A stretch of DNA of 35,002 nucleotides. Source: a virus. Positions 1 through 10,754 of the stretch are shown one piece after another. Numbering within the stretch: position 1 is the first letter of the stretch; the number at the start of each line of letters is the position of its first letter. Under the pieces are notes generated by a model, which worked only from the letters and a program-made list of their open reading frames with translations, did no database searches and was not told the origin of the DNA. Location: UHGV virus genome UHGV-0140552; one strand, given 5' to 3'. The position numbers and the translations under genes are program-made.

Positions 1-1017
1 TCATTTTTTCTGACCACCAACAACCGGCACAATTTTAGTTTTCCTGTCGTAAATCGCCGTTTGTCTCGAATTCTTATGGCCTGAAATCGCCTGTTTCTCC
101 TCGAGGCTTCCTTCCAGATCAGAGACACCTTTCGCTTTCAGATCGTGGAAAGTGAAATCTATCTGCAGGTGTGGGTTCTTTTCCTGCGCTGCGATTTTCG
201 CGTCGCGCCAGCGTGAATTAAAACCGTCACGGGTGTATTTGCTGCCGCTGGTCTGGTGAATGACAAACAGGCTACGGATACCCGGCTTTAACGGCAGGGA
301 ACGGGCGAGGGCGACAGCGGCGCGCAGGCGTGGCGACCATGCTTTGATTTGCTTCACGCCTGTTTTCCCCTGGCGGATAAAGATCCCGGTTTCGCGTATC
401 TGGTCTTCAGTCAAAGCCAGCACATCGCTTTGTCTGGCCAGACACAAATAAGCGATTTCCATGGTGGCGCGAACTACGTCTGGAGCAACATCGTAAACCG
501 CTTTGTATTCTTCGTCGGTGATGTAACGCTCCCGGGCTGCCTCTTTGAACTTCTTAACGCCCTGACAGGGATTATGCTGGACGTAACCCCGCTCATAACC
601 CCAGCGGAATACCCGAGAAAGAAAACTCTTTTCCCGGTTGGCCTGCGTTTTACTGGCCATGCCACGCTGATCCATATAGCGCCGGATGTGTTCCGGTTTA
701 ATTTTATCGGGGTTAACCTTCCCGAACACCGGCAACACTTTGCCTGCGTATTTCGTGTAGTCTTTTCGGGTTTCTGCCGCTAAATCCTGCCAGTCAGGGG
801 AAGACATGAATTGATCGGCCAGAGCCTGAAACGTCTTGCGCTCGACTTCTTCTCCCATGGCTTTTTCATATGCCAGCCATACAGCTGATTGAGGCTCGGA
901 GAGCGCACATAGCCTGATAGCCTTGTTATCTTTATTCCTGAATTCATACGCCGCCTTACCGCGATACACGCGGGGCGGCATCCAGTTATCAGCGGGGTTC
1001 TTACGTTTTCCGGCCAT
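1..1017 (-). CDS. int: Tyrosine-type site-specific integrase (338 aa, stop codon at 1-3)
   Basis: Full ORF on minus strand. C-terminal region has the integrase-like HDLKAKG...SGHKNSRQTAIYDR pattern with a putative catalytic Tyr. Lies at the edge of the phage gene set, directly downstream of a small excisionase-like gene. Confidence 0.88.
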   Translation of the reverse strand: MAGKRKNPADNWMPPRVYRGKAAYEFRNKDNKAIRLCALSEPQSAVWLAYEKAMGEEVERKTFQALADQFMSSPDWQDLAAETRKDYTKYAGKVLPVFGKVNPDKIKPEHIRRYMDQRGMASKTQANREKSFLSRVFRWGYERGYVQHNPCQGVKKFKEAARERYITDEEYKAVYDVAPDVVRATMEIAYLCLARQSDVLALTEDQIRETGIFIRQGKTGVKQIKAWSPRLRAAVALARSLPLKPGIRSLFVIHQTSGSKYTRDGFNSRWRDAKIAAQEKNPHLQIDFTFHDLKAKGVSDLEGSLEEKQAISGHKNSRQTAIYDRKTKIVPVVGGQKK

Positions 1018-1246
1018 TAAAGATAGCTCCGAAGTCTGGTTCTTCCTCCCGCACCGTCTCTTCCTGCTGGTTGCGGTATTTAATCGGGTTCAGGAAATGG
1101 CCCCACGTCGTTTTAGGATGGCCGTCTGCCCTTTCCATGAAAAAGACACCGGCCCGACGTAGCGCTTCACACTGCCTCGATTTAAGTGGGGTCCCCGTCA
1201 GTTCGATCATTTCCTCTCTGGTGATGATGTCGTGATCGTGTCTCAT
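1001..1246 (-). CDS. Putative excisionase / small recombination directionality factor (81 aa)
   Basis: Small basic ORF immediately upstream of int and overlapping it by 17 nt. Preceded by the conserved GAGGAAAGACC-ATG initiation motif. Function assigned by position only. Confidence 0.45.
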   Translation of the reverse strand: MRHDHDIITREEMIELTGTPLKSRQCEALRRAGVFFMERADGHPKTTWGHFLNPIKYRNQQEETVREEEPDFGAIFNGRKT

Positions 1247-1400
1247 GGTCTTTCCTCAGCATGCCGGCTATCGCGTTGTCTGCCGTATCGCAAGCGCGTT
1301 GGATATCGGACTGGGTCAGAGTCCTCTTTCTAACGCTGGCTGATAGCCTGCCAATTTTGATATCGAAATCTGAAAGTAAAAGTGTGCCTGGTTGCCAACG

Positions 1401-1440
1401 TAGCATTGTGATCTCCGGTTCATAGGTAGATCACAATGCT
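1401..1440. repeat. Perfect 14-bp inverted repeat TAGCATTGTGATCT / AGATCACAATGCTA with 12-bp spacer
   Basis: Read directly from sequence. Lies between the 61-aa gene and the xis-like gene, with no T-run on either side. Confidence 0.8.
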
Positions 1441-1455
1441 AACGACAGTTGCGAG

Positions 1456-1641
1456 TTATTTCTGATTAGGCTTAATCAGGTTTGGTTTATTCCGGAACGC
1501 GCCATTTTCGCGGGTGATTTTGGCACTGCGCGGAAAATGCATAGCCAGTTCACAACGCGCGCAGGCTTCGATTATCCCGTTAGTACCGTCCGGAAAAACG
1601 ACGTGAAGCGCGTCGCCTCGTTTCAGTGTGAGTTTCAGCAT
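1456..1641 (-). CDS. Hypothetical small protein (61 aa), start at ATG 1641
   Basis: ORF in the leftward early operon. Its ATG at 1639-1641 abuts the stop codon (1643-1645) of the upstream gene. No recognisable motif. Confidence 0.5.
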   Translation of the reverse strand: MLKLTLKRGDALHVVFPDGTNGIIEACARCELAMHFPRSAKITRENGAFRNKPNLIKPNQK

Positions 1642-1642
1642 A

Positions 1643-2209
1643 TCAGCGCACCTGCAGCGAACGTTCGCCAATCTCAAGGTGAGCGCCCGGCACTGGGTTT
1701 AACAGTTCTTCCGGTATCTCTCCGCCGTCAGCGGTAATCTGGGCCGCCGCTGCCTGTGCTGATTCAATCGCTTCCTTGATGGCTTTCTTGTCCGGAGTGA
1801 CTAACGTCTGAACTGTCACTAATTCATCCGGCAGTAATTCATCATTATCGATCACGACGTTTATAGCTCCCTTACGTGCGGTAAAGGTATTTTTGGCGGT
1901 TTTAACCGTATCCTGACCGGCGGCCAGTAGACACTGGAGAACATATTTCTTCAGGTTCGTGATCTTACCTTCGAATGATTTTTTGCGGGCGGCAAGGCGT
2001 TTGGCCTCTTCATCGCAGGTTTTTGCCAGGCCTTCCAGATTGCGAACGTGGACGAAAACGGCATCCAGTTTATCGCCGAGTTGTAACTCAAGACCTTCCA
2101 TTGTGTCGGCGATCATTTCAGGAGACAGACCAGCACCGTCTTCGTTTTCCAGTAGTGCCTGGAGTTTTGACATATCGGCTGCGATAGCAATTGCAGTGGT
2201 GGAAGTCAT
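1643..2209 (-). CDS. Gp157-like phage protein (188 aa), recombination-module associated
   Basis: Coiled-coil-rich acidic protein with an EEAKRLAARKK...NLKKYV segment resembling the Siphovirus Gp157 family as I recall it. Translationally coupled (TAATG overlap) to the upstream annealing-protein gene. Confidence 0.55.
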   Translation of the reverse strand: MTSTTAIAIAADMSKLQALLENEDGAGLSPEMIADTMEGLELQLGDKLDAVFVHVRNLEGLAKTCDEEAKRLAARKKSFEGKITNLKKYVLQCLLAAGQDTVKTAKNTFTARKGAINVVIDNDELLPDELVTVQTLVTPDKKAIKEAIESAQAAAAQITADGGEIPEELLNPVPGAHLEIGERSLQVR

Positions 2210-4401
2210 TATGCTTTCTCCTCGGCTTTATTCAGTTCTTTAATGCGCCCATCTTTGATGGAGATGAGTCGGCGGAGCCGGCCAGACAGATAACGTTCAT
2301 GCTGCGTGTCGCCGTTGGCCTGGGCGGCTTTAATGTGAACATCGATCTCACGTGCGATAGGGGAAAACACACCGTTGATTTCGTTCACCGTCACGCCATG
2401 CGCCAGGGTATTAGCAACGCGGCTTAATTTATCGTCAAACTCCTGGCGGAGCCGTGCTGCATCTTCGGCTGATTCGCTGGCGTTCTTCAGGTCAAACTCG
2501 GCCTTGTTCTTCTGGCGGTACTCCAGATTGTCGTAAAGCCCCATAAAGATATCGCCACTGAATCCGAGGCCGGATAACGCTTTTTTGGTCGCATCTGTCA
2601 GTGATTTTTTGGCTGCTTCGCCGTCGCAGGTGATCCCGTATTTACTACCGTAAATGTAGGGTGTACAGCCGTATGCTGTTTCCTCACCTCGTACTCCGTT
2701 CAGGATGTACCAGAGCCGGACAGTCACAACATGGTGCTGTTCGTTGACGGTATTACCATTCCCATCAAGAACCAGCTCCCACGATGCGTTGTTGTCTTTG
2801 CCTTTTACTTGCCGAGTGATCGGCGCGCCAATATCGAAACGCTCTTCAACAATATCCACGCCCCAGCCGATGCCCTTAGGGCCAAACTCACGTGTGGCAA
2901 GCATGGTCATGTAGGTACCGTTGATCGAGGTGCCACCGCCGTTCTGTGTGAAAGCCTTAGTAAACCTTTCGTCGGTTTTAAATACGCGTTTCCAGAGGTC
3001 TAAATTGTCTTCCCCGATGATTGGTTTTCCGACAGCCTGCACAACATCCTCAGCGTTAGGCAGGCTTTCAGCGTGAGCGATTTGTTTTGCTAAACGCTCG
3101 GAATCATCAGCCAGTTTTTCAGCCTTAACGCTTAACTTCTCTTCCGGCTCTGCACCTTCACCAGAGGCATATACGCCATAACCCATATCATTGAGCGTCT
3201 CACGCGCCTGTTTGGCCTGGGTGTCGGTTACAACCGGCTGCTGCGCTTCCACTTTTTCGCCCACGTTTGAGGCGGTATTTTGCGTCGCCTCTGGTTGTTT
3301 AACGGATCCTGTCTCGGTTTCCTCAAAGCGGCCGTTGGCCGCCAGCCATGAATCGATATGGCGGCGCAGGCTGTCAGGGAAATGGTAGGTATCTTTCGCC
3401 GGTACGTTTTGTACCACGCCGAAGATGCTGGCGCGGTCGTATTTGAGTATCTGCGGCGTGGTGTGCAGCGATGCTGACCAGCGTTTAAAATCTTCCCGGT
3501 CATCGGAAATCATCTTCTTAGCGTCCAGAAGGTTTCCGGATAGTACCGGCGCATCAGGCGCCAGCGGGAGAAGGGCGGTAGCGATCTCCTGATCCAGCGT
3601 TGCATAAGTGTGTTTATATCCGCGCTTAGAAATTACCACGGGTGTTTTATCATCGGTGCTGGTGCTGGTGCTGGTGCTGGTGCTGGTGCTGGTGCTGGTG
3701 CTGGTGCTGAGAGCGGTATTTTTATATACGCCGGGGGCCAGTTCGTCGCGCTTGCCCGGATTCTCAAGCCAGCGTTTAACGAACTGAGAGATAGCCGCTT
3801 TGCCCGGCGTCTGGTTTTCAAAGTGGGAGAAAATACCCTGAATAAGATTGTTCAGACCTTCCACATGCATGCTTTGAACCGGGAAGTTATTTTGCAGGGC
3901 ACACAGAACATTAAAGTTAAAGCGATCTTCCTCTTCAAATTCCCCATCGTGGTTTTTCAGATTATCCAGATAATCCACAACCTGAGAATAAAGATGGCCA
4001 TCAATCGCCGCGGTACTAAAAAGCAGGACGGCAGCAAAGCGTTCATCAGGGGAAACGGTCATCAGGTCGATCACTTCATCGTCGGCAGGTAAACCTGCAC
4101 CACTTCCGGAAGCGCTATCCTGCGCAGTAGAAACCCATTTTTCACCGTCAAAAGTATGCTGCTGGGCGAATGACTCATCGAACTGGCCAACGGTCGGCAG
4201 CGGCTGGCCTTCAACGTGTTCCCACAGTTTCGGTTTGAAATAGTTGTCACCATTGGCCGGGTATGATTCCCAGAGTTTGCCGGTCATAATGCTTTCGGCC
4301 ACTTTTTTGTTTGGCGCATCGATGGCGATCGCCAGCTGCACGGCGCCGCAGTCTTTAATCGCCGATTTCTTTGGCTCAAATGAGCCGTTGTAGATGGTCA
4401 T
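2209..4401 (-). CDS. Large multidomain protein (730 aa) with C-terminal Rad52/Sak-type single-strand annealing domain and an internal (Ser-Thr)9 linker
   Basis: Segment GCTPYIYGSKYGITCDGEAAKKSLTDATKKALSGLGFSGDIFMGLYDN matches the Rad52-family signature (K-x-A/S-V/L-TD-x-x-K-K/R-AL-x-x-F/L-G). Start placed at ATG 4399-4401, which has the GAGGAAAGACCA RBS motif; the ORF-track start at 4434 is a GTG without a Shine-Dalgarno. Confidence 0.75.
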   Translation of the reverse strand: MTIYNGSFEPKKSAIKDCGAVQLAIAIDAPNKKVAESIMTGKLWESYPANGDNYFKPKLWEHVEGQPLPTVGQFDESFAQQHTFDGEKWVSTAQDSASGSGAGLPADDEVIDLMTVSPDERFAAVLLFSTAAIDGHLYSQVVDYLDNLKNHDGEFEEEDRFNFNVLCALQNNFPVQSMHVEGLNNLIQGIFSHFENQTPGKAAISQFVKRWLENPGKRDELAPGVYKNTALSTSTSTSTSTSTSTSTSTDDKTPVVISKRGYKHTYATLDQEIATALLPLAPDAPVLSGNLLDAKKMISDDREDFKRWSASLHTTPQILKYDRASIFGVVQNVPAKDTYHFPDSLRRHIDSWLAANGRFEETETGSVKQPEATQNTASNVGEKVEAQQPVVTDTQAKQARETLNDMGYGVYASGEGAEPEEKLSVKAEKLADDSERLAKQIAHAESLPNAEDVVQAVGKPIIGEDNLDLWKRVFKTDERFTKAFTQNGGGTSINGTYMTMLATREFGPKGIGWGVDIVEERFDIGAPITRQVKGKDNNASWELVLDGNGNTVNEQHHVVTVRLWYILNGVRGEETAYGCTPYIYGSKYGITCDGEAAKKSLTDATKKALSGLGFSGDIFMGLYDNLEYRQKNKAEFDLKNASESAEDAARLRQEFDDKLSRVANTLAHGVTVNEINGVFSPIAREIDVHIKAAQANGDTQHERYLSGRLRRLISIKDGRIKELNKAEEKA
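3655..3708. repeat. Perfect hexanucleotide tandem repeat (GGTGCT)x9, in-frame within the 730-aa gene, encoding (ST)9
   Basis: Read directly: nine contiguous GGTGCT units on the plus strand; on the minus coding strand AGCACC gives S-T repeats. Confidence 0.95.
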
Positions 4402-4445
4402 TGGTCTTTCCTCTTGGTTACTGGCGCAGGTCACGCGCCGGTTAA

Positions 4446-4769
4446 TTAAAACGGTACGTCGCTTTCTTCAATTGGAGAGTGATCGATGCACAGCAGCTGC
4501 TGAATCTGGTCTTCAATAACACCCAGCTCCTTCTTTGCTTCGGCAGAGATTTTCTCTTTCTTCGCACGAAGGGCATTAACCTGCATACCAATAATGTCGA
4601 TTGGCTCTAAAGCTGGAATGGCAACCTCTACCGTTTTGGTAGTAACGAGGACATACAGATCAGGGTATTGCTGTGACATGTCACAGGTGAATGAGTGATA
4701 AGACGTTGGTAGATATGGGTTGGTTGTGGCCATAACGTAAATAGTTACGGGGATGGTAAGCGCTTCCAT
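4446..4769 (-). CDS. Hypothetical protein (107 aa), first gene of the leftward early operon; C-terminus ...PIEESDVPF
   Basis: ORF with a strong AAGGAG Shine-Dalgarno 5 nt upstream of the ATG at 4769. No recognisable domain. Confidence 0.7.
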   Translation of the reverse strand: MEALTIPVTIYVMATTNPYLPTSYHSFTCDMSQQYPDLYVLVTTKTVEVAIPALEPIDIIGMQVNALRAKKEKISAEAKKELGVIEDQIQQLLCIDHSPIEESDVPF

Positions 4770-4887
4770 AGCGACTCCTTGATGATATATACTCAGAGCC
4801 GATCAGCGGCTCTGTCGTTGGTCTTTCCTCGCTACAGGGTTGGTCCCCTGTAGCATTCTGGGCGGTTTGGTCACTGTCCCGGGTAAA

Positions 4888-4962
4888 TTAGCCCACTTCG
4901 GTGGGCTTTTTTACGCCTGAAGGTTGCCGGTCTTTCCCGGCTGTCAGGGTGGTCAGCCCCAT
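4888..4962 (-). CDS. Possible leader-peptide ORF (24 aa, MGLTTLTAGKDRQPSGVKKPTEVG) ending inside the terminator hairpin
   Basis: ATG at 4960-4962 is preceded by a perfect copy of the GAGGAAAGACCA initiation motif. The stop codon (4888-4890) sits at the base of the 4890-4907 hairpin. Very short and unverified. Confidence 0.25.
   Translation of the reverse strand: MGLTTLTAGKDRQPSGVKKPTEVG
4890..4912 (+). terminator. Intrinsic-terminator-like hairpin AGCCCAC-TTCG-GTGGGCT followed by TTTTT (plus-strand sense); A-tract on the other side, so possibly bidirectional
   Basis: 7-bp GC-rich stem, TTCG tetraloop, T-run 4908-4912. Located in the ~490-bp noncoding leader between the repressor gene and the early-left genes. 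Confidence 0.55.
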
Positions 4963-5169
4963 TGGTCTTTCCTCGTTACTGCGTGAATGCTTTAAAAAAA
5001 TGCCCGGGGCGCCCGGGCCAAGACTACACACAGCAATTCGCATTCGTTGCGGTCTTTCCCGCATGTCATCGTACTGTCGGCGACCCGAAGAATTCGCGCC
5101 CGTCTTTCCGGACTGTCAGAACTGTTTCTGAACAACTGCCGCGTGGTTAGTGCGTCGTTGATGTGATGT

Positions 5170-5198
5170 AATTTAGATAAATCTAACAATTTGGTCAA
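5170..5198 (-). promoter_or_regulatory. Putative early-left promoter (PL-like): -35 TTGACC, 17-bp spacer, -10 TAAATT, overlapped by an operator
   Basis: Reverse complement of 5170-5198 reads TTGACC-17 nt-TAAATT. The operator palindrome at 5173-5186 overlaps the spacer and -10. Confidence 0.4.
5173..5186. promoter_or_regulatory. Operator-like 14-bp palindrome TTAGATAAATCTAA (OL-like)
   Basis: One of three sites fitting TTAGA-N4-TCTAA. A swapped-arm relative, TCTAACTGATTAGA, lies at 5244-5257. Confidence 0.6.
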
Positions 5199-5263
5199 TG
5201 ATTAAATTAGAGAAAACGAACACAATGGGCGTAAAAAAATGCATCTAACTGATTAGAAAGGGA

Positions 5264-5650
5264 TTATTTTTGTTTGCGGGCTTGCAGTAACTCCTCAAAT
5301 AAACGATTGAAACCGTCTACTTTTTCGCGAAGTTCCGTTAAATGCCGCTCTTTTTCAGATTCTGGGAGTGACGAAAAGAGTTTTAAAAGCTCTGTTTCTC
5401 GTTCATCTAATGGCGGCGGGGTGTCTACCGGGGTTCCCGGAGTGGCGGCTTCATCGCCGTAAAGTATCCAGGTAGGGCTGCATTGAAGTGCGTTACTTAA
5501 AGCGAAAAGGTTTTTTCCGCCAGGCTCACTATCACCGGTCTCCCACTGGGAGATAGTGACGTGCGCGACGTTAACCAGCTTCGCTAAAGCGCGCTGAGTA
5601 AGTTTGAGATCTTTTCTACGCGCTCTGATGCGCTCACCTGGCATTGTCAT
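5264..5650 (-). CDS. Phage repressor, HTH XRE-family (128 aa), RacR/CI-like, no S24 peptidase domain
   Basis: N-terminal HTH (LTQRALAKLVNVAHVTISQWETG). Divergent from a cro-like gene, with palindromic operators in the 80-bp intergenic region. Too short to carry a LexA-like autocleavage domain. Confidence 0.85.
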   Translation of the reverse strand: MTMPGERIRARRKDLKLTQRALAKLVNVAHVTISQWETGDSEPGGKNLFALSNALQCSPTWILYGDEAATPGTPVDTPPPLDERETELLKLFSSLPESEKERHLTELREKVDGFNRLFEELLQARKQK

Positions 5651-5652
5651 AG

Positions 5653-5666
5653 TTAGATAATTCTAA
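5653..5666. promoter_or_regulatory. Operator-like 14-bp palindrome TTAGATAATTCTAA (OR-like, proximal to the repressor gene)
   Basis: Palindrome read from sequence. On the minus strand it contains TAGAAT about 10 nt upstream of the repressor ATG, suggesting a leaderless PRM-like transcript. Confidence 0.6.
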
Positions 5667-5672
5667 ATTTCC

Positions 5673-5701
5673 TTGACTTCGTTATCTCGAACACCTAATT
5701 T
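5673..5701 (+). promoter_or_regulatory. Putative early-right promoter (PR-like): -35 TTGACT, 17-bp spacer, -10 TAATTT
   Basis: Sequence match. The -10 is weak, so this is a tentative call. Confidence 0.35.
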
Positions 5702-5702
5702 G

Positions 5703-5716
5703 TTAGAAAAATCTAA
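5703..5716. promoter_or_regulatory. Operator-like 14-bp palindrome TTAGAAAAATCTAA (OR-like, proximal to the cro-like gene)
   Basis: Palindrome lies between the putative PR -10 and the CAGGAGGG Shine-Dalgarno of the cro-like gene. Confidence 0.6.
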
Positions 5717-5730
5717 CAGGAGGGTGTTTC

Positions 5731-5925
5731 ATGTTAACAACTGATGCGATCAAATATTTTGGTAGTAAGAGAAAACTGGCTGAGGCCGCTGGCGTTAAGG
5801 CTCCTACTGTCTATGCGTGGGGGCGTTTGGTTCCTGAAGGTAAAGCGGCTCGTTTGTCTCTGATGACTGATGGCGAACTTGTTTATGACCCAAAGGCTTA
5901 CCAACTGCCAGCCAAATCAGCTTAA
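5731..5925 (+). CDS. Cro-like / YdaS-family small HTH regulator (64 aa)
   Basis: Small ORF divergent from the repressor, with a strong Shine-Dalgarno (CAGGAGGG). HTH-like segment KRKLAEAAGVKAPTVYAWG. Same arrangement as racR-ydaS in the E. coli Rac prophage. Confidence 0.75.
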   Translation: MLTTDAIKYFGSKRKLAEAAGVKAPTVYAWGRLVPEGKAARLSLMTDGELVYDPKAYQLPAKSA

Positions 5926-5987
5926 CAATTAGCGGCATCGAAATCTGATTACGCTTAATCAATTTTCAGCGACAGGAGACGCTCGAA

Positions 5988-6434
5988 GTGGAATACCTCG
6001 AAGAACTTAAACGAGAGATCTTTAACTGGGCAGCGGAAAGCGGGCAGGAGCTGGTTGCTATCGAGATAAGCCGCATGTGGTTTCGTCTTGGTGGTAATAC
6101 CGGTTCGCTGAAGCTGCACCAGATCGAAGATGCAGATGGAAACGCCGACTGGCGGGCAATCAACAACAACCGCCAACAAATTTTTCGTTGGTTGCGAGGC
6201 GAGACCAAAGCCGCGAGAGCCAAAACTCTGGCGCTGGTCAAAGCGATGGAAGCGGCGCTGCCGGCAGAACGTTACGCGCGCTTGGGTATGTCCACTCAGT
6301 ATTTAATTTGTGTGGCCATTCGCGAGTTTGCCGCGGCGATTATCGCGTTGTTACTCGACGCCAGAGACGGGCCGCAGCAAGTCGCCAGAGCATTGCAAGC
6401 TATGCGAGAAACACAGCGCCTGACCAGCGTTTAA
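5988..6434 (+). CDS. YdaT-like / CII-like regulatory protein (148 aa), GTG start
   Basis: Follows the cro-like gene. AGGAG Shine-Dalgarno 9 nt upstream of GTG 5988. The QQIFRWLRGETK segment is reminiscent of the YdaT family (recalled from memory, unverified). Confidence 0.55.
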   Translation: MEYLEELKREIFNWAAESGQELVAIEISRMWFRLGGNTGSLKLHQIEDADGNADWRAINNNRQQIFRWLRGETKAARAKTLALVKAMEAALPAERYARLGMSTQYLICVAIREFAAAIIALLLDARDGPQQVARALQAMRETQRLTSV

Positions 6435-6454
6435 CCTGTACCGAGGAAAGACCA

Positions 6455-6676
6455 ATGAGAACACAAGACCGCATCACCTGGCGGAACGGGTTTCGCCGGA
6501 ACGGGGTACAAGTCCCGATAGAAGATATCGAATTGATTTTCGAGGAACGTCGCGCTGCTGCGCTGACAATCTGGGAACGCTACGAGCTGCGCAAAGCAGA
6601 CCTGCAGGAAGCGGGACTCACCCAGAAAGAATATGAAATCGCCTGCCGCCAGCTGGCTGACTCGCTGGGGATCTGA
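6455..6676 (+). CDS. Hypothetical small protein (73 aa)
   Basis: ATG 6455 is preceded by the conserved GAGGAAAGACCA motif. The longer ORF-track call (6188-6676) overlaps the YdaT-like gene and lacks an RBS. Confidence 0.6.
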   Translation: MRTQDRITWRNGFRRNGVQVPIEDIELIFEERRAAALTIWERYELRKADLQEAGLTQKEYEIACRQLADSLGI

Positions 6677-6678
6677 GT

Positions 6679-7671
6679 ATGAATATTTTGCCATTACTCG
6701 ACAGGCCGATCGCCTTCCAGCGTAGTTTCATTCGCCTGAATATCGGTGTGACGGCTGCACTGTTCCTGTCTCAAATGACTTACTGGACTAACCGATCCGA
6801 CGATGATGGATGGGTATATAAAACCCAGGAAGAATGGGAGGAAGAAACAGGCCTTTCCCGTTACGAACAGGAGGGGGCGCGTAAGAAACTTCGCTCAATT
6901 GGTGTACTGCTGGAAAAAAAGAAAGGTGTACCTGCTCGTCTTTTCTACAAGATTGATAATGATGTTTTATTTCAATCACTTGTAGCCGCAAACAAGAATG
7001 CGGAAAAACCACATACTGGAATGCGGAAAACCAGCAAACAAGTAAGTGGAAAACCAGCAAACTTTCTTACAGAGAATACTACAGAGAATATATATACCCC
7101 TAACCCCTTAGAGGGGGAAGGCGTTGAGTTAATTCTTTCTGATGCACAAAAAGCGCTGGAATTTTACAACGAGCAAACCGGTACCCGCTGCCGTGACCTG
7201 AAACCGTTTGTGATGATGCTGACGCCGACCACCACCCGGGAAGGTTACACCCTGGACGAATTGCAGTTAGTTATCCGCTGGGTGCTGGCCACATGGCGCC
7301 GCCGTGGCGATAGCCTGCCGAAGCCAGCGAACATCTGCCGGGTAAACCGCTTTGATGGTTATCTCGCTGACGCTGAAGCATGGGCGGTGACCGAAGCCGA
7401 TATTGACCCCGAAGCCGTTATGAACGGCTACAACGAAATTTTTGCTGACGCTCTGCCTGCTGCTGAACTCGACACCGACCGCCGCCGGATGATCACCCGT
7501 CTGGCCGCCCATATGAAAAACAAAACCACGGGCGCATTTCTGGGCTATTTCGAAAAATTCCGCGCTGACGCCTCCGATTTTTACTTTGGTGAAAATGGCG
7601 GATGGCGCGCCAGCTTTGACTACCTGATGAAGCCTGAAACATTGCGTAAAACTCGTGAGGGATCGCTATGA
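6679..7671 (+). CDS. Phage replication initiation protein (O-like / replisome organiser, 330 aa)
   Basis: Sits immediately upstream of, and translationally coupled to, the DnaB-type helicase gene. N-terminal DNA-binding-like region and a C-terminal region typical of phage replication proteins. Confidence 0.7.
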   Translation: MNILPLLDRPIAFQRSFIRLNIGVTAALFLSQMTYWTNRSDDDGWVYKTQEEWEEETGLSRYEQEGARKKLRSIGVLLEKKKGVPARLFYKIDNDVLFQSLVAANKNAEKPHTGMRKTSKQVSGKPANFLTENTTENIYTPNPLEGEGVELILSDAQKALEFYNEQTGTRCRDLKPFVMMLTPTTTREGYTLDELQLVIRWVLATWRRRGDSLPKPANICRVNRFDGYLADAEAWAVTEADIDPEAVMNGYNEIFADALPAAELDTDRRRMITRLAAHMKNKTTGAFLGYFEKFRADASDFYFGENGGWRASFDYLMKPETLRKTREGSL

Positions 7672-9056
7672 CTCCGCAGGAACTGGAATCTTGTGTACTG
7701 GCTGGACTGCTTAACGGTGGAGCAAGTCCGGACGCTTTCGACGTGATCGCATCGACGCCTGAAGAATCATTCAGCATTGTTTTTCATCGTCGCGCCTTCT
7801 CGGAAATCAAAAAACAGGCGTTGACGAACGGTCTGATCGATATGCTGTTTGTCAGTGAGGCTCTGGGAGGGAGTAGCCTGGCTGATTTATCAGAGATTTC
7901 GCGTATGCCCGCAACGGTACCAAACCTGAAAGGTTACGCCGGGAAAATGGTGAAGGCGTGGCGCAGCCGCCGTATGGCTGAATTACTGCAACATGGTGCT
8001 GATGGTATCCGCCAGGCGAATAATCAGGAGCAGCGCGATCAGATTGTCGAAACTGCCGTGGCGCAGCTGCTGGACATGACCGGCGACACTGGCGACGTGC
8101 AGCCGGTACACATGAGCGAATTATTGCCGGTGTACATGGAAACCATGCAGAAGCGCATGGACGGCGAAGAGGGTACTCGCAACCTGAAAACCGGGATCGA
8201 GGAACTGGACGATGCGACCGGCGGAATCAACCTGCAGGATTTGATTGTCGTCGCCGGGCGTCCGGGCATGGGAAAAACAGAATTTGCGCTGAAGATTGTC
8301 GATGGTGTTACCGCTGCTGGCGGTGGCGCGTTGATATTCAGCATGGAAATGGCCGCTGCGCAAATCGTAGAACGCTCTCTGGCGGGTTCTGGCAACATGT
8401 CAGTGTCACGCCTGCGTAATCCCCTCGATATGCAGGACGAGGACTGGGCGCGCTTTACCGCGGCCATGGAGACCATGAACGGGCGAGATATCTGGATCGT
8501 TGATGCTACCGATCTGACGATTGAGCAAATCCGCGCCGTTGCCGAAACGCATAAGCGCCGGTATCCGCATCTGGCGATGATCGTTGTCGATTACCTTGGC
8601 CTGATAAAAAAACCGAAGGCAGAGCGTAACGACCTCGCGATCGCCCACATATCCCGAAACCTAAAAACTATGGCTATGCGCCTGCATACGCCGACGTTCG
8701 CGCTTAGCCAGCTTTCCCGCGCCGTGGATTCCCGCCCGGCGGCCCAGCGCCGCCCGGTCATGTCAGACCTGCGCGATTCCGGTTCCATTGAGCAGGACGC
8801 CGACAGCATCATGTTTCTGTACCGCGATGAGGTTTACAACCCGGAAAGCCCGGCGGCTGGCGTCGCTGAAATTATCCTGGGTAAAAGCCGCTTCAGCGCC
8901 GCAGGCGCAATTATTTATCAGGAATTTAAAAACGGACACTTTCTGTCAATGGATCAGCATGTTGGCAAAGAGAAAACACGTATCCAACTGGAGGCCGCGA
9001 AACCCCGGAAACAACCCCGTAAATACTCAGAGAAATTCAATACCGATGCATTTTAA
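7668..9056 (+). CDS. Replicative DNA helicase, DnaB family (462 aa)
   Basis: Walker A GRPGMGKTEF, Walker B-like IVVDYLGLI, and overall DnaB C-terminal RecA-fold layout. Confidence 0.9.
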   Translation: MTPQELESCVLAGLLNGGASPDAFDVIASTPEESFSIVFHRRAFSEIKKQALTNGLIDMLFVSEALGGSSLADLSEISRMPATVPNLKGYAGKMVKAWRSRRMAELLQHGADGIRQANNQEQRDQIVETAVAQLLDMTGDTGDVQPVHMSELLPVYMETMQKRMDGEEGTRNLKTGIEELDDATGGINLQDLIVVAGRPGMGKTEFALKIVDGVTAAGGGALIFSMEMAAAQIVERSLAGSGNMSVSRLRNPLDMQDEDWARFTAAMETMNGRDIWIVDATDLTIEQIRAVAETHKRRYPHLAMIVVDYLGLIKKPKAERNDLAIAHISRNLKTMAMRLHTPTFALSQLSRAVDSRPAAQRRPVMSDLRDSGSIEQDADSIMFLYRDEVYNPESPAAGVAEIILGKSRFSAAGAIIYQEFKNGHFLSMDQHVGKEKTRIQLEAAKPRKQPRKYSEKFNTDAF

Positions 9057-9094
9057 CCGCGCCTGACCAGCGCGATTTAACTGAGGAAAGACCA

Positions 9095-9763
9095 ATGACC
9101 ACGAATTTAAATTACCCAAAACCAGTAAAACCGGATGATGGCTGCAACTGGCTCCCCGTTATTCTCTGGCGCATGAATGCCGGTGCGCGCGCCCGTAGCC
9201 GTTCCGTGTTCGTAGCGGCGCCACGTCCGGCCCCTGTACCAGGCATCACCCCGCAAAAACCGATTAAGCGAGAAATTATCGCCCCTACGGTTTCCGGCCG
9301 CAGGCGTAAAACCCACATCGGCACCGTGATTTATTCCAGAGGTGAAAAAAGCGTTCGCCTTAGCGAAGGCGCGACTGTCTGGTCTGCTGGCTCAAATGAG
9401 CATTTCGATAAAAAAACGGGCCAGCGCGTCGGCAGTATTGGCCGTCACCGTCTGGTGCTGGAGAGTATCCGCCCATTGCAGGCCAGCGACGCACAACAGG
9501 ACGCCGGGAGCGTCACCGCGCAGCAACTGGTAGCCGTGATGAAAGGCAAAACGCTTTCTTACCAGGGCATTCTGGCATTAATCCAGAAGCACTATCCCGA
9601 TTGTCAGGTGACGACTAAAGAACTTCACGATCGCGTGTTCGGCATGTTCATGTCGAATTACGTGGGTATCACCCGTCACGACGATATGCCGGTGGTTCAC
9701 TTCACGCTTAACAGCGTCGATCCCCGTTATTACATCGAGTCAGCGAAGAACAAGAGGGCATAA
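9095..9763 (+). CDS. Hypothetical protein (222 aa)
   Basis: ORF preceded by the GAGGAAAGACCA motif. Coding-like composition, no recognisable domain. Confidence 0.65.
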   Translation: MTTNLNYPKPVKPDDGCNWLPVILWRMNAGARARSRSVFVAAPRPAPVPGITPQKPIKREIIAPTVSGRRRKTHIGTVIYSRGEKSVRLSEGATVWSAGSNEHFDKKTGQRVGSIGRHRLVLESIRPLQASDAQQDAGSVTAQQLVAVMKGKTLSYQGILALIQKHYPDCQVTTKELHDRVFGMFMSNYVGITRHDDMPVVHFTLNSVDPRYYIESAKNKRA

Positions 9764-10000: not shown

Positions 10001-10167
10001 AATTTTCAACACCTGATTTTATGCATTGCAGCCGCAGGACGCTGATGCTGTTCGTACTCAGTGCAAACGTTGTTGGCTGGATAGTCATTATCGCTCTGAT
10101 ATGGGCTGGATGTGAGGTTGCACAGTGGGCGCTGGAATGTCTCCGCAGTAGTGGGGTGCTTGCGTGA
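9997..10167 (+). CDS. Small hydrophobic (membrane) protein, 56 aa
   Basis: ATG 9997 overlaps the upstream stop. One clear hydrophobic helix (LMLFVLSANVVGWIVIIALIWAG). The stop overlaps the GTG start of the methyltransferase gene. Confidence 0.4.
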   Translation: MKFSTPDFMHCSRRTLMLFVLSANVVGWIVIIALIWAGCEVAQWALECLRSSGVLA

Positions 10168-10754
10168 ATAACAAATACACCCTGATTTATTGCGATCCGC
10201 CCTGGACTTATCGCGACAAAGCCAACGATGGGGAACGCGGCGCCGGGCACAAATACCAGACCATGACTGTGCTCGATATCTGCCGTCTCCCGGTCTGGGA
10301 ACTGGCCGCTGAAAACTGCCTGCTGGCTATGTGGTGGGTACCTACTCAGCCGCTGGAGGCGTTACGAGTAGTCGAGGCGTGGGGGTTCCGCCTGATGACC
10401 ATGAAAGGCTTTACGTGGAACAAATGCTACAGCCGGCAGACCGACAAACTGGCCCTTGGAATGGGCCATATGACCAGGGCGAACAGTGAGGATTGCCTTT
10501 TCGCTGTGCAGGGGAAATTGCCCGCCCGGCTGGATGCCGGGATCGTTCAGTCATTCACGGCCCCGCGTCTGGAGCATTCGCGCAAACCGGATATCGTGCG
10601 CGAAAAGCTTGTGCAGCTGCTGGGCGATGTACCGCGTATTGAGTTATTCGCCCGCCAGTCTTCGCATGGTTTCGACGTGTGGGGCAACCAGTGTGAATCG
10701 CCAGCGGTGGCGCTGCTGCCGGGCATTGCGGAATATATCGGGGAGGTTTCTTAA
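10164..10754 (+). CDS. DNA N6-adenine methyltransferase, MT-A70 family (196 aa), orphan phage MTase, GTG start
   Basis: Catalytic DPPW motif (IYCDPPW) near the N-terminus. No adjacent restriction endonuclease gene. Confidence 0.85.
   Translation: MNNKYTLIYCDPPWTYRDKANDGERGAGHKYQTMTVLDICRLPVWELAAENCLLAMWWVPTQPLEALRVVEAWGFRLMTMKGFTWNKCYSRQTDKLALGMGHMTRANSEDCLFAVQGKLPARLDAGIVQSFTAPRLEHSRKPDIVREKLVQLLGDVPRIELFARQSSHGFDVWGNQCESPAVALLPGIAEYIGEVS

Follow-up and report, generated by a model that had tools for sequence, protein, structure and literature searches.

A short motif at dispersed gene starts of a lambdoid-type prophage and a candidate antisense RNA complementary to it

Why does one short sequence stand directly before unrelated genes on both strands of the same phage genome? 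The question is raised by UHGV virus genome UHGV-0140552, a stretch of 35,002 nucleotides (the window in what follows) whose gene families are those of the early and part of the late region of a lambdoid-type prophage. The 12-nt sequence GAGGAAAGACCA is found in the window in six exact copies against 0.00 expected (100 shuffles), and its 8-nt core GGAAAGAC in 10 copies against 0.88 expected. We think it fairly probable, judging from comparison with related phages, that one small RNA (sRNA), encoded by the phage, has this motif as its shared target site. The six exact copies are as follows.

1246-1257, minus strand: ribosome-binding site (RBS) of the DUF4224 excisionase-like gene xis (ATG at 1246-1244)
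4402-4413, minus strand: RBS of the 730-aa exonuclease gene exo (ATG at 4401-4399)
4819-4830, minus strand: the sixth copy, with no start codon after it
4963-4974, minus strand: copy in an untranslated leader, followed by a non-conserved ATG
6443-6454, plus strand: RBS of a 73-aa gene (p73)
9083-9094, plus strand: RBS of a 222-aa gene (p222)

A sequence-only reading of this DNA had reported the motif at five gene starts. The motif is real and has more copies than had been claimed, but only four of them are at real gene starts: the fifth supposed gene, a "leader-like ORF" (open reading frame) at 4962, has its ATG replaced by ACG or AAG in relatives, and the copy at 4963-4974 is therefore not a gene start. 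Two details also need correction, as the xis copy with its ATG spans 1244-1257 and not 1247-1260, and the 730-aa protein, taken for a recombinase, matches the exonuclease family PHROG 2489.

For comparison we used 80 loci chosen by exonuclease homology alone (57-97% amino acid identity), so that the motif itself gives no ascertainment bias. It is present before exo in 79/79 cases, before p73 in 78/78, before p222 in 69/72 and before xis in 75/77, that is at the same four cistrons in 96-100% of related loci, and the search in relatives that the earlier reading had proposed as a check thus bears it out. In the same loci there are no cases of the motif before p107, ydaT, repO, gp157, p61 or dnaB. 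All 485 of the 485 copies of GAGGAAAGAC in related loci are co-oriented with transcription of the divergent operons, and the position of the motif is that of the first cistron of each translationally coupled unit after an intergenic gap, the units being exo-gp157-p61, xis-int, p73-repO-dnaB, and p222 with the genes that follow it. On the sequence evidence the recurrence of the motif is far above chance and above simple descent.

The motif is also found where there is nothing to translate. Of the 427 core copies in motif-rich loci, 166 are followed by an ORF of at least 40 aa, 121 are in a hairpin form described below and 80 are linear with no start codon. The start-less and hairpin-form copies are concentrated in the untranslated leader of the leftward early promoter pL, and as more than half of the copies in the lineage are not at gene starts the motif is not only an initiation signal. 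The proposal of a plain initiation module is to that extent set aside.

With regard to the motif sequence itself, we note that GGAAAGACC, present in all copies (for example at 6445-6453), is identical to positions 2056-2064 of E. coli 23S rRNA, the A2058 segment known for macrolides, Erm and TLR13. A given 9-mer is expected in rRNA by chance at about 2%, and we take the identity as a coincidence.

The candidate antisense RNA and its proposed pairing with the start modules

The sixth copy of the motif lies within a candidate sRNA gene on the opposite strand, with the following elements.

about 4800-4913, plus strand: candidate sRNA gene of about 113 nt, antisense to the pL leader and just upstream of the 107-aa gene (p107)
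4788-4793, plus strand: inferred -10 box TATACT, overlapping on the other strand the 5' untranslated region of p107
4801-4823, plus strand: 5' hairpin hp0
4818-4830, plus strand: seed block UUGGUCUUUCCUC, reverse complement of the sixth motif copy (4819-4830, minus)
4824-4830, plus strand: unpaired UUUCCUC
4831-4854, plus strand: hairpin 1, loop UUGGUC
4858-4882, plus strand: hairpin 2, loop UUUGGUC
4890-4907, plus strand: intrinsic terminator hairpin with U6 after it (whole element 4890-4913)

The window sequence folds with a minimum free energy of -58.6 kcal/mol (z = -7.4). In an alignment of 28 distinct relatives 97.7% of cells are paired, against about 48% in slid controls, and 12 of the 17 pairs have compensatory changes; covariation scores 0.551, where shuffles give 0.272 and none of 500 reaches the observed value. 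The strand can be assigned with some precision. G·U pairs on the sRNA strand occupy 76 of 472 alignment cells, and in the 31 unique variants of hairpin 1, which has multiple compensatory changes, 14 non-Watson-Crick pairs are A·C in the sense strand and hence G·U on the plus strand, with 0 of the opposite kind. When the two strands are folded, that of the sRNA comes out as the more stable one in 47/47 variants, with a mean difference of 13.5 kcal/mol from its complement. In predicted folds hp0 forms in 20/20 sequence-diverse variants and UUUCCUC is exactly the unpaired stretch in 47/47, with a probability of being unpaired close to 1. The loops UUGGUC and UUUGGUC are invariant, as is GGTCTTTCCTC in 28/28 aligned relatives, and the signature of the RNA is found in 82/86 loci by a strict regular expression and in a variant form in the other four. 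At the -10 position TATA[C/A]T is kept in 59/59 unique upstream variants while its flanks vary, and several have TGnTATAAT with the TG of an extended -10.

The comparison shows at the level of sequence that a conserved, structured, terminator-ended RNA is encoded on the plus strand at about 4800-4913, and we infer that it is expressed. No known RNA family reaches its Rfam gathering threshold in the window. Promoter, terminator, conserved structure, an accessible conserved seed and complementary target RBSs are, as far as sequence goes, all present, as in the class of trans-acting base-pairing sRNAs. The suggestion that the motif might be a small-RNA target gains comparative support from this gene, with its promoter, its terminator and its exact motif complement. 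The plus strand of 4800-5110 had been suggested as a place to look for an RNA complementary to GGUCUUUCCUC, which stands for 4800-4913; the rest of that interval has no plus-strand RNA signatures.

Two side observations concern the ends of the RNA. Its predicted 5' end (4801-4804, plus) starts with (C/T)GATC, a Dam site, in most variants, and the 5' GATC pairs in hp0 with the invariant GGUC of the seed; a methylation-sensitive sRNA start is possible. At the other end the terminator hairpin (4890-4913) has an A-run ahead of it on the sense strand, so it may also act bidirectionally. It may make pL transcripts stop in part or pause, and would keep rightward read-through out of the immunity region.

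The seed block UUGGUCUUUCCUC is the perfect complement of GAGGAAAGACCA(A) and spans the Shine-Dalgarno (SD) region and the spacer. The invariant block GGTCTTTCCTC of the sRNA mirrors the invariant target block GAGGAAAGACC, with variation starting at the same boundary on both sides, and the target variant GACUA keeps its pairing through G·U. By this comparison of sequences the complementarity of the RNA to the start modules is shown to be exact and co-conserved. When the 547 candidate starts in the window are ranked by predicted duplex energy (median -10 kcal/mol) the four motif-bearing genes come first, in the order p73 (-29.5 kcal/mol), p222 (-27.7), exo (-27.5) and xis (-23.7), a ranking that follows from the shared sequence and so shows magnitude and is not an independent proof.

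There is a second element at three of the four sites. The exo, p73 and p222 copies each have ahead of them a small hairpin whose loop is (C/G)UGACC(A/U) and whose stem covaries.

4423-4439, minus strand: GGCGC-GUGACCU-GCGCC, upstream of the exo copy
6415-6431, plus strand: AGCGC-CUGACCA-GCGUU, at the 3' end of ydaT and ahead of the p73 copy, with a G·U pair in the sense strand
9058-9074, plus strand: CGCGC-CUGACCA-GCGCG, after dnaB and upstream of the p222 copy

In relatives the hairpin upstream of exo has the stems GGCGC/GCGCC, GGTGT/GCACC, CGC/GCG, AGCGC/GCGCT and CTGCG/CGCAG, and 89 of 115 instances have the form seen at 6415-6431. Non-Watson-Crick pairs in the CUGACCA-type hairpins are G·U in the sense strand in 17 cases and A·C in 2, a bias that identifies the element as an RNA hairpin in the mRNA. 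Its spacing from the motif ranges from 25 to 28 nt. The UUGGUC loops of the sRNA are complementary to the CUGACCA(G) loops of these hairpins, which suggests a bipartite contact in which loop-loop kissing is added to seed pairing.

We propose on this basis that the seed would extend from UUUCCUC into UUGGUCUUUCCUC by opening of the 5' hairpin, and that pairing would occlude the RBS and repress translation of recombination, excision and replication functions. In a lysogen, with pL and pR repressed, this would most plausibly serve as a second safeguard. Since one and the same RNA would have to pair at all of the sites, 11-13 nt would be frozen at each, and the need for one seed to fit four sites would account for their identity at unrelated genes. 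In the pL leader a further 5-8 sense copies, linear and hairpin-presented, would be a cis target of the RNA, and on induction could act as decoys that titrate it, while convergent transcription from pL would interfere with its promoter. Repression, the role in lysogeny and the role of the leader as cis target and decoy are all read from the arrangement of the sequence elements.

Several points weigh against this proposal. Only 7 nt (UUUCCUC, a generic anti-SD sequence) are free in the predicted fold; the GGUC part of the seed is paired in hp0, so specificity would need strand invasion or 5' processing. One copy of the motif falls within the sRNA gene, which makes the complementarity automatic in part; the RNA may act in cis on the leader alone, the sense motif being read by some other factor. 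The xis site lacks the upstream CUGACCA hairpin. The sRNA promoter was missed by a consensus promoter scan because its -35 is poor. The hairpin-form copies of the leader have no clear strand preference (5 against 4 wobbles), and transcription from pL past the strong terminator T0 described below has no account in the model. In Salmonella Gifsy-2 the sRNA IsrB, to which we return, has no such seed and the early genes have no shared start motif.

Other sources of a complementary RNA were considered. A motif complement within the same sense transcript, by the logic of P1 c4 and P4 CI, is absent because all copies are co-oriented, and we know of no host sRNAs with GGUCUUUCC.

The pL leader and the surrounding genes

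Between p107 and the cI-like repressor gene is a non-coding leader of about 400 nt, a tandem array of hairpin and motif modules with no genes between them. Besides the two linear copies given above it has these features.

5170-5198, minus strand: leftward early promoter pL (TTGACC-17-TAAATT), overlapping an operator-like palindrome TTAGATAAATCTAA
5098-5113, minus strand: hairpin-form copy A1, GUCCG-GAAAGA-CGGGC, core at 5102, the first element after pL, with CUGACAG ahead of it
5048-5063, minus strand: hairpin-form copy A2, UGCGG-GAAAGA-CCGCA, core at 5052, upstream of T0
4995-5018, minus strand: strong intrinsic terminator T0 (GCCCGGGCGCCCCGGGC followed by U7), 150-170 nt downstream of pL
4926-4941, minus strand: hairpin-form copy GCCGG-GAAAGA-CCGGC, core at 4930, whose stems vary in relatives with pairing kept

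The hairpin-form copies have a 5-bp stem and the loop GAAAGA. The stems of A1 covary among relatives (UCCG/CGGG, CCCG/CGGG, UCUG/CAGG, AUUCG/CGAAU and GUGG/CCAC), and in relatives T0 has different stems that still pair.

The leader has further features that we record for their own sake. Over about its first 60 nt (CAUCAACGACGCACUAACCACGCGGCAGUUGUUCAGAAACAGUUCUGAC; 5125-5165, minus) the pL transcript is nearly invariant in all relatives, even where the leader downstream or the immunity genes differ; this start of the transcript is C/A-rich and carries a boxA-like GCACUAAC. From A2 to T0 (4992-5093, minus) there is a full-length match to Rfam RprA (RF00034) of 41.6 bits (E about 1e-3), which does not reach the gathering threshold of 70 bits. 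The leader shares with RprA a 21-nt identical block CGAAUUGCUGUGUGUAGUCUU and the terminator, and relatives keep the block, so that by sequence the short pL-T0 transcript may be an RprA-like sRNA with two GAAAGA loops.

The genes of the region are arranged as follows.

1-1017, leftward: integrase gene
1001-1246, minus strand: xis (Pfam DUF4224, PHROG excisionase)
1456-1641, minus strand: 61-aa gene p61 (PHROG 2482)
1643-2209, leftward: Gp157/Gam-like gene
2209-4401, minus strand: exo, 730 aa (PHROG 2489)
4446-4769, leftward: 107-aa gene p107
5264-5650: cI-like repressor gene
rightward genes: cro, YdaT (CII-like), the 73-aa gene, RepO, DnaB, the 222-aa gene and others
6455-6676, plus strand: p73 (PHROG 2465, function unknown), heading the coupled p73-repO-dnaB unit
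9095-9763, plus strand: p222 (PHROG 4183, function unknown)
10164-10754: MT-A70-family adenine methyltransferase gene

Close relatives comprise two records (BUCT708 and BUCT709), a few E. coli prophages, one Raoultella genome and about 100 uncultivated viral contigs, and the family of the 61-aa protein occurs in Klebsiella/Raoultella, Salmonella, Enterobacter and E. coli. A protein scan of genome contigs with the 107-aa protein gave a single locus, in Raoultella, and the comparison thus rests on viral contigs. The sole isolated phages with this early region, BUCT708 (OM816834) and BUCT709 (OM816835), were deposited as Stenotrophomonas maltophilia phages. Their early region is about 85% identical to that of enterobacterial prophages, with protein families from Klebsiella, Raoultella, Salmonella and E. 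coli, and the Stenotrophomonas host assignment looks doubtful.

Within exo there is a tandem hexamer (GGTGCT)n at 3655-3709, which on the coding minus strand gives a Ser/Thr-rich run, and among relatives the length of the exonuclease is between 714 and 760 aa. Inside repO (6999-7062, plus) there are iteron-like direct repeats, GCGGAAAAACCA, GCGGAAAACCAGCAAAC and GTGGAAAACCAGCAAAC, which are probably the replication origin; one of them is a 2-mismatch match to the motif. One related viral contig (L028, 10882-10970, plus) has an Rfam sRNA-Xcc1 match above threshold (66.3 bits) that has no relation to the motif system.

Other explanations of the motif

The alternative that survives best, which we nevertheless consider unlikely, is that a phage or host protein reads the motif in the sense strand, as an N/boxB-like antitermination factor, a CsrA/RegA-like repressor at SD sequences, or both, with the antisense RNA acting only in cis on the leader and p107. 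The hairpins with the invariant GAAAGA loop and covarying stems do stand after pL and before a strong terminator, those with the CUGACCA loop are sense-strand folds, and in 17/20 variants it is the sense strand of the pL-proximal leader that is the more stable. A sense-RNA-binding protein for the hairpin-form leader copies upstream of T0 is possible. However the stretch from pL to T0 has no N-like ORF, hairpin-form copies are absent after pR, and no early protein matches a known RNA-binding family. The linear copies are unable to fold into the hairpin, so a single protein would need to recognise the motif in two forms, and an antisense-specific structure that exposes the exact complement would be left unaccounted for.

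In the case of p61 there is some likeness to CsrA. The protein is conserved in all relatives and can be put in register with CsrA by eye (M1 L2 L4 T5 G9 ... G33 P37 V40 V42 R44 E45); its AF2 model (pLDDT 84) has five strands at the CsrA strand positions, and the hhalign alignment with CsrA is full-length (P = 0.003). On the other side the hhalign probability is only 11%, BLASTP found nothing, Pfam gave nothing at E <= 10 and Foldseek against the PDB gave no CsrA, and homology of p61 with CsrA is not supported. For p73, p222 and p107 there were no PDB sequence relatives and no Pfam family. The N-terminus of p73 looked arginine-rich and was considered as an arginine-rich motif, but the family alignment shows a conserved DRITWRNGFRLNG motif instead.

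Less probable again is a plain strong RBS kept by descent, homogenised by recombination between copies and serving as a cassette linker, with no trans-acting factor. The motif does place GAGG 7-9 nt ahead of the start codon. By a check by eye the 3' end of 16S rRNA pairs with GAGG only, and the AAAGACC positions beyond the SD cannot pair with it, so we rejected extended SD pairing as an explanation of the motif; yet AAAGACC is invariant in phages with an exonuclease just 57% identical while the flanking spacers vary. There are also traces of cassette exchange: one relative (L002) has an extra 94-aa gene with the motif on both sides and junctions at GGAAAGACC, the slot before exo holds different accessory genes among relatives, and four accessory families carry the motif. 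In another locus (L185), however, the homologue of the L002 gene is without the motif, and as it is carried by only about eight gene families, of which four have it at fixed positions, the evidence for cassette traffic is slight. The many copies with no start codon, the hairpins and the antisense RNA are left unaccounted for. Recombination between copies, as suggested by the motif-flanked gene of L002, may occur as a by-product, and the recombinational linker offered by the sequence-only reading is a side effect at best.

That the copies are DNA sites for a DNA-binding protein, like the stoperators of mycobacteriophage L5 (asymmetric DNA sites that block elongation in lysogens), is very improbable: the motif is asymmetric and co-oriented with transcription, is found in short gaps between genes and forms a cluster immediately after an early promoter, but its inverted repeats covary to keep pairing with strand-specific G·U, which is a signature of RNA and not of double-stranded DNA, the spacing of the two conserved pieces varies (25 to 28 nt), and the operator-like palindromes TTAGATAAATCTAA are unrelated to the motif, whereas stoperators are related to the operator of the repressor.

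Comparison with known systems

On the sequence evidence the nearest described RNA is IsrB (Rfam RF01386) of Salmonella Gifsy-1 and Gifsy-2, an 88/94-nt sRNA verified by Northern blot, of unknown function, associated with ProQ and presumed to have a role in lysogeny. IsrB-like prophage sRNAs have been known since 2008 with no targets. In Gifsy-2 isrB is at 5993-6080 (plus), between exoVIII (minus) and STM1010 (minus), and the candidate RNA described here, between the p107 and exo genes and the leader, is likewise a short, terminator-ended prophage RNA, antisense in the leftward early operon adjoining the exonuclease gene (<- -> <-) and close to the 90 nt or so of isrB. The two have in common the second hairpin with its UUUGGUC loop and the GCCCACUUCGGUGGGC terminator. 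They differ in the 5' half, which in IsrB is unrelated and has no anti-motif. The Rfam isrB match at 4827-4911 (plus) is 28.7 bits, below the gathering threshold of 35, and none of 11 related loci has isrB at that threshold. The best reading is of a phage sRNA that by sequence appears distantly IsrB-like and is in no Rfam family at threshold.

Phage RNAs that occlude an RBS are well established, in P22 sar/ant, lambda OOP/cII and P1-P7 c4/icd-ant, and in P1 the loops of c4 pair with repeated target sites, one of which covers an RBS (reviewed in PMC12197685). As in these systems a short phage RNA would here pair with the translation-initiation region of phage regulatory or early genes. The classical antisense RNAs serve one gene or operon, whereas here one seed fits four dispersed cistrons on both divergent operons, and there is in addition the multi-copy leader array.

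The leader has its own parallels. As in lambda N/nut and HK022 put, the stretch from pL to the first terminator opens with conserved hairpins, and the GAAAGA loop resembles the lambda boxB loops GAAAA and GAAGA. It is a hexaloop where boxB has a pentaloop, and the hairpin-form copies are found only in the pL leader, with no counterpart after pR and no ORF between pL and T0 that could be N-like; the 107-aa product of the first pL gene has no arginine-rich motif and no family match. HK022 put was considered and rejected, as the putL and putR regions share no motif or sequence similarity with the leader. The occurrence of a short motif both at target SDs and in many hairpin loops of a non-coding RNA is the titration architecture of the CsrA/CsrB sponges and of AgvB, but no credible CsrA homologue was found here and the proposed partner is RNA and not protein, and the match to AgvB reaches only 18.7 bits.

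Among described motif phenomena the nearest is that of the start-associated motifs (SAS, with ESAS) of cluster K mycobacteriophages (Pope et al. 2011, PMC3203893), the function of which was still open in 2025. SAS are asymmetric motifs of 12-13 nt that include the SD, lie a few bases before the starts of unrelated non-structural genes, have a single orientation and positions conserved beyond 16S pairing, and about half of the sites have a second conserved element upstream. The motif described here has the same architecture: it is asymmetric, includes the SD, has one orientation, precedes unrelated genes and is conserved beyond complementarity to 16S. The sequences are different, the SAS consensus (at most 2 mismatches, 3-8 bp before starts) being GGGATAGGAGCCC and the motif here GAGGAAAGACCA, as are the host phylum and the number of sites (11-19 per genome against 4 here). 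The ESAS repeats were judged not to form RNA hairpins, and a complementary RNA has been identified only here.

We did observe in Adephagia (JF704105, cluster K) that all 16 SAS copies before genes are on the plus strand, and that a lone reverse SAS is in a 430-nt non-coding gap. It forms the 10-nt loop CCUCCUAUCC of a hairpin at about 58,654-58,729 of the record (38655-38730, plus, in our locus L206), with a folding energy of -33.7 kcal/mol (z = -4.65) and the loop complementary to the SAS core. This hairpin is conserved in 131 cluster K records (also in our loci L207-L210), with compensatory and G·U changes in the stem. By analogy the SAS motifs may likewise be targets of one phage RNA.

Taken together these comparisons allow a broader proposal, which we put forward as tentative and rather less probable than the shared target site itself. 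It is that temperate phages of Klebsiella and other enterobacteria have a second, all-RNA immunity layer in which one sRNA would silence four dispersed early units through a frozen 13-nt module; release on induction would come from a leader with 5-8 decoys, two of them on a short RprA-mimicking pL-T0 transcript, and the same logic, a start motif as the regulon tag of one phage RNA, would hold for cluster K SAS.

Start-associated phage motifs have so far been without a mechanism, and the concrete one proposed here is that the genes marked by the motif belong to the regulon of one phage sRNA. This also gives a proposed function to the IsrB-like class of prophage sRNAs and predicts a sponge-like role for the long untranslated pL leader. 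The RNA family is present in at least 80 uncultivated phage genomes and in prophages of E. coli, Klebsiella/Raoultella, Salmonella and Enterobacter, and is absent from Rfam at threshold. If the proposal is true a single RNA lets the phage switch several early genes, and the 13-nt module with its sRNA could serve as a compact multi-gene translational switch. Judged by sequence, a base-pairing phage sRNA would be of a known kind, while the multi-cistron "regulon tag" and the multi-copy leader would be new.

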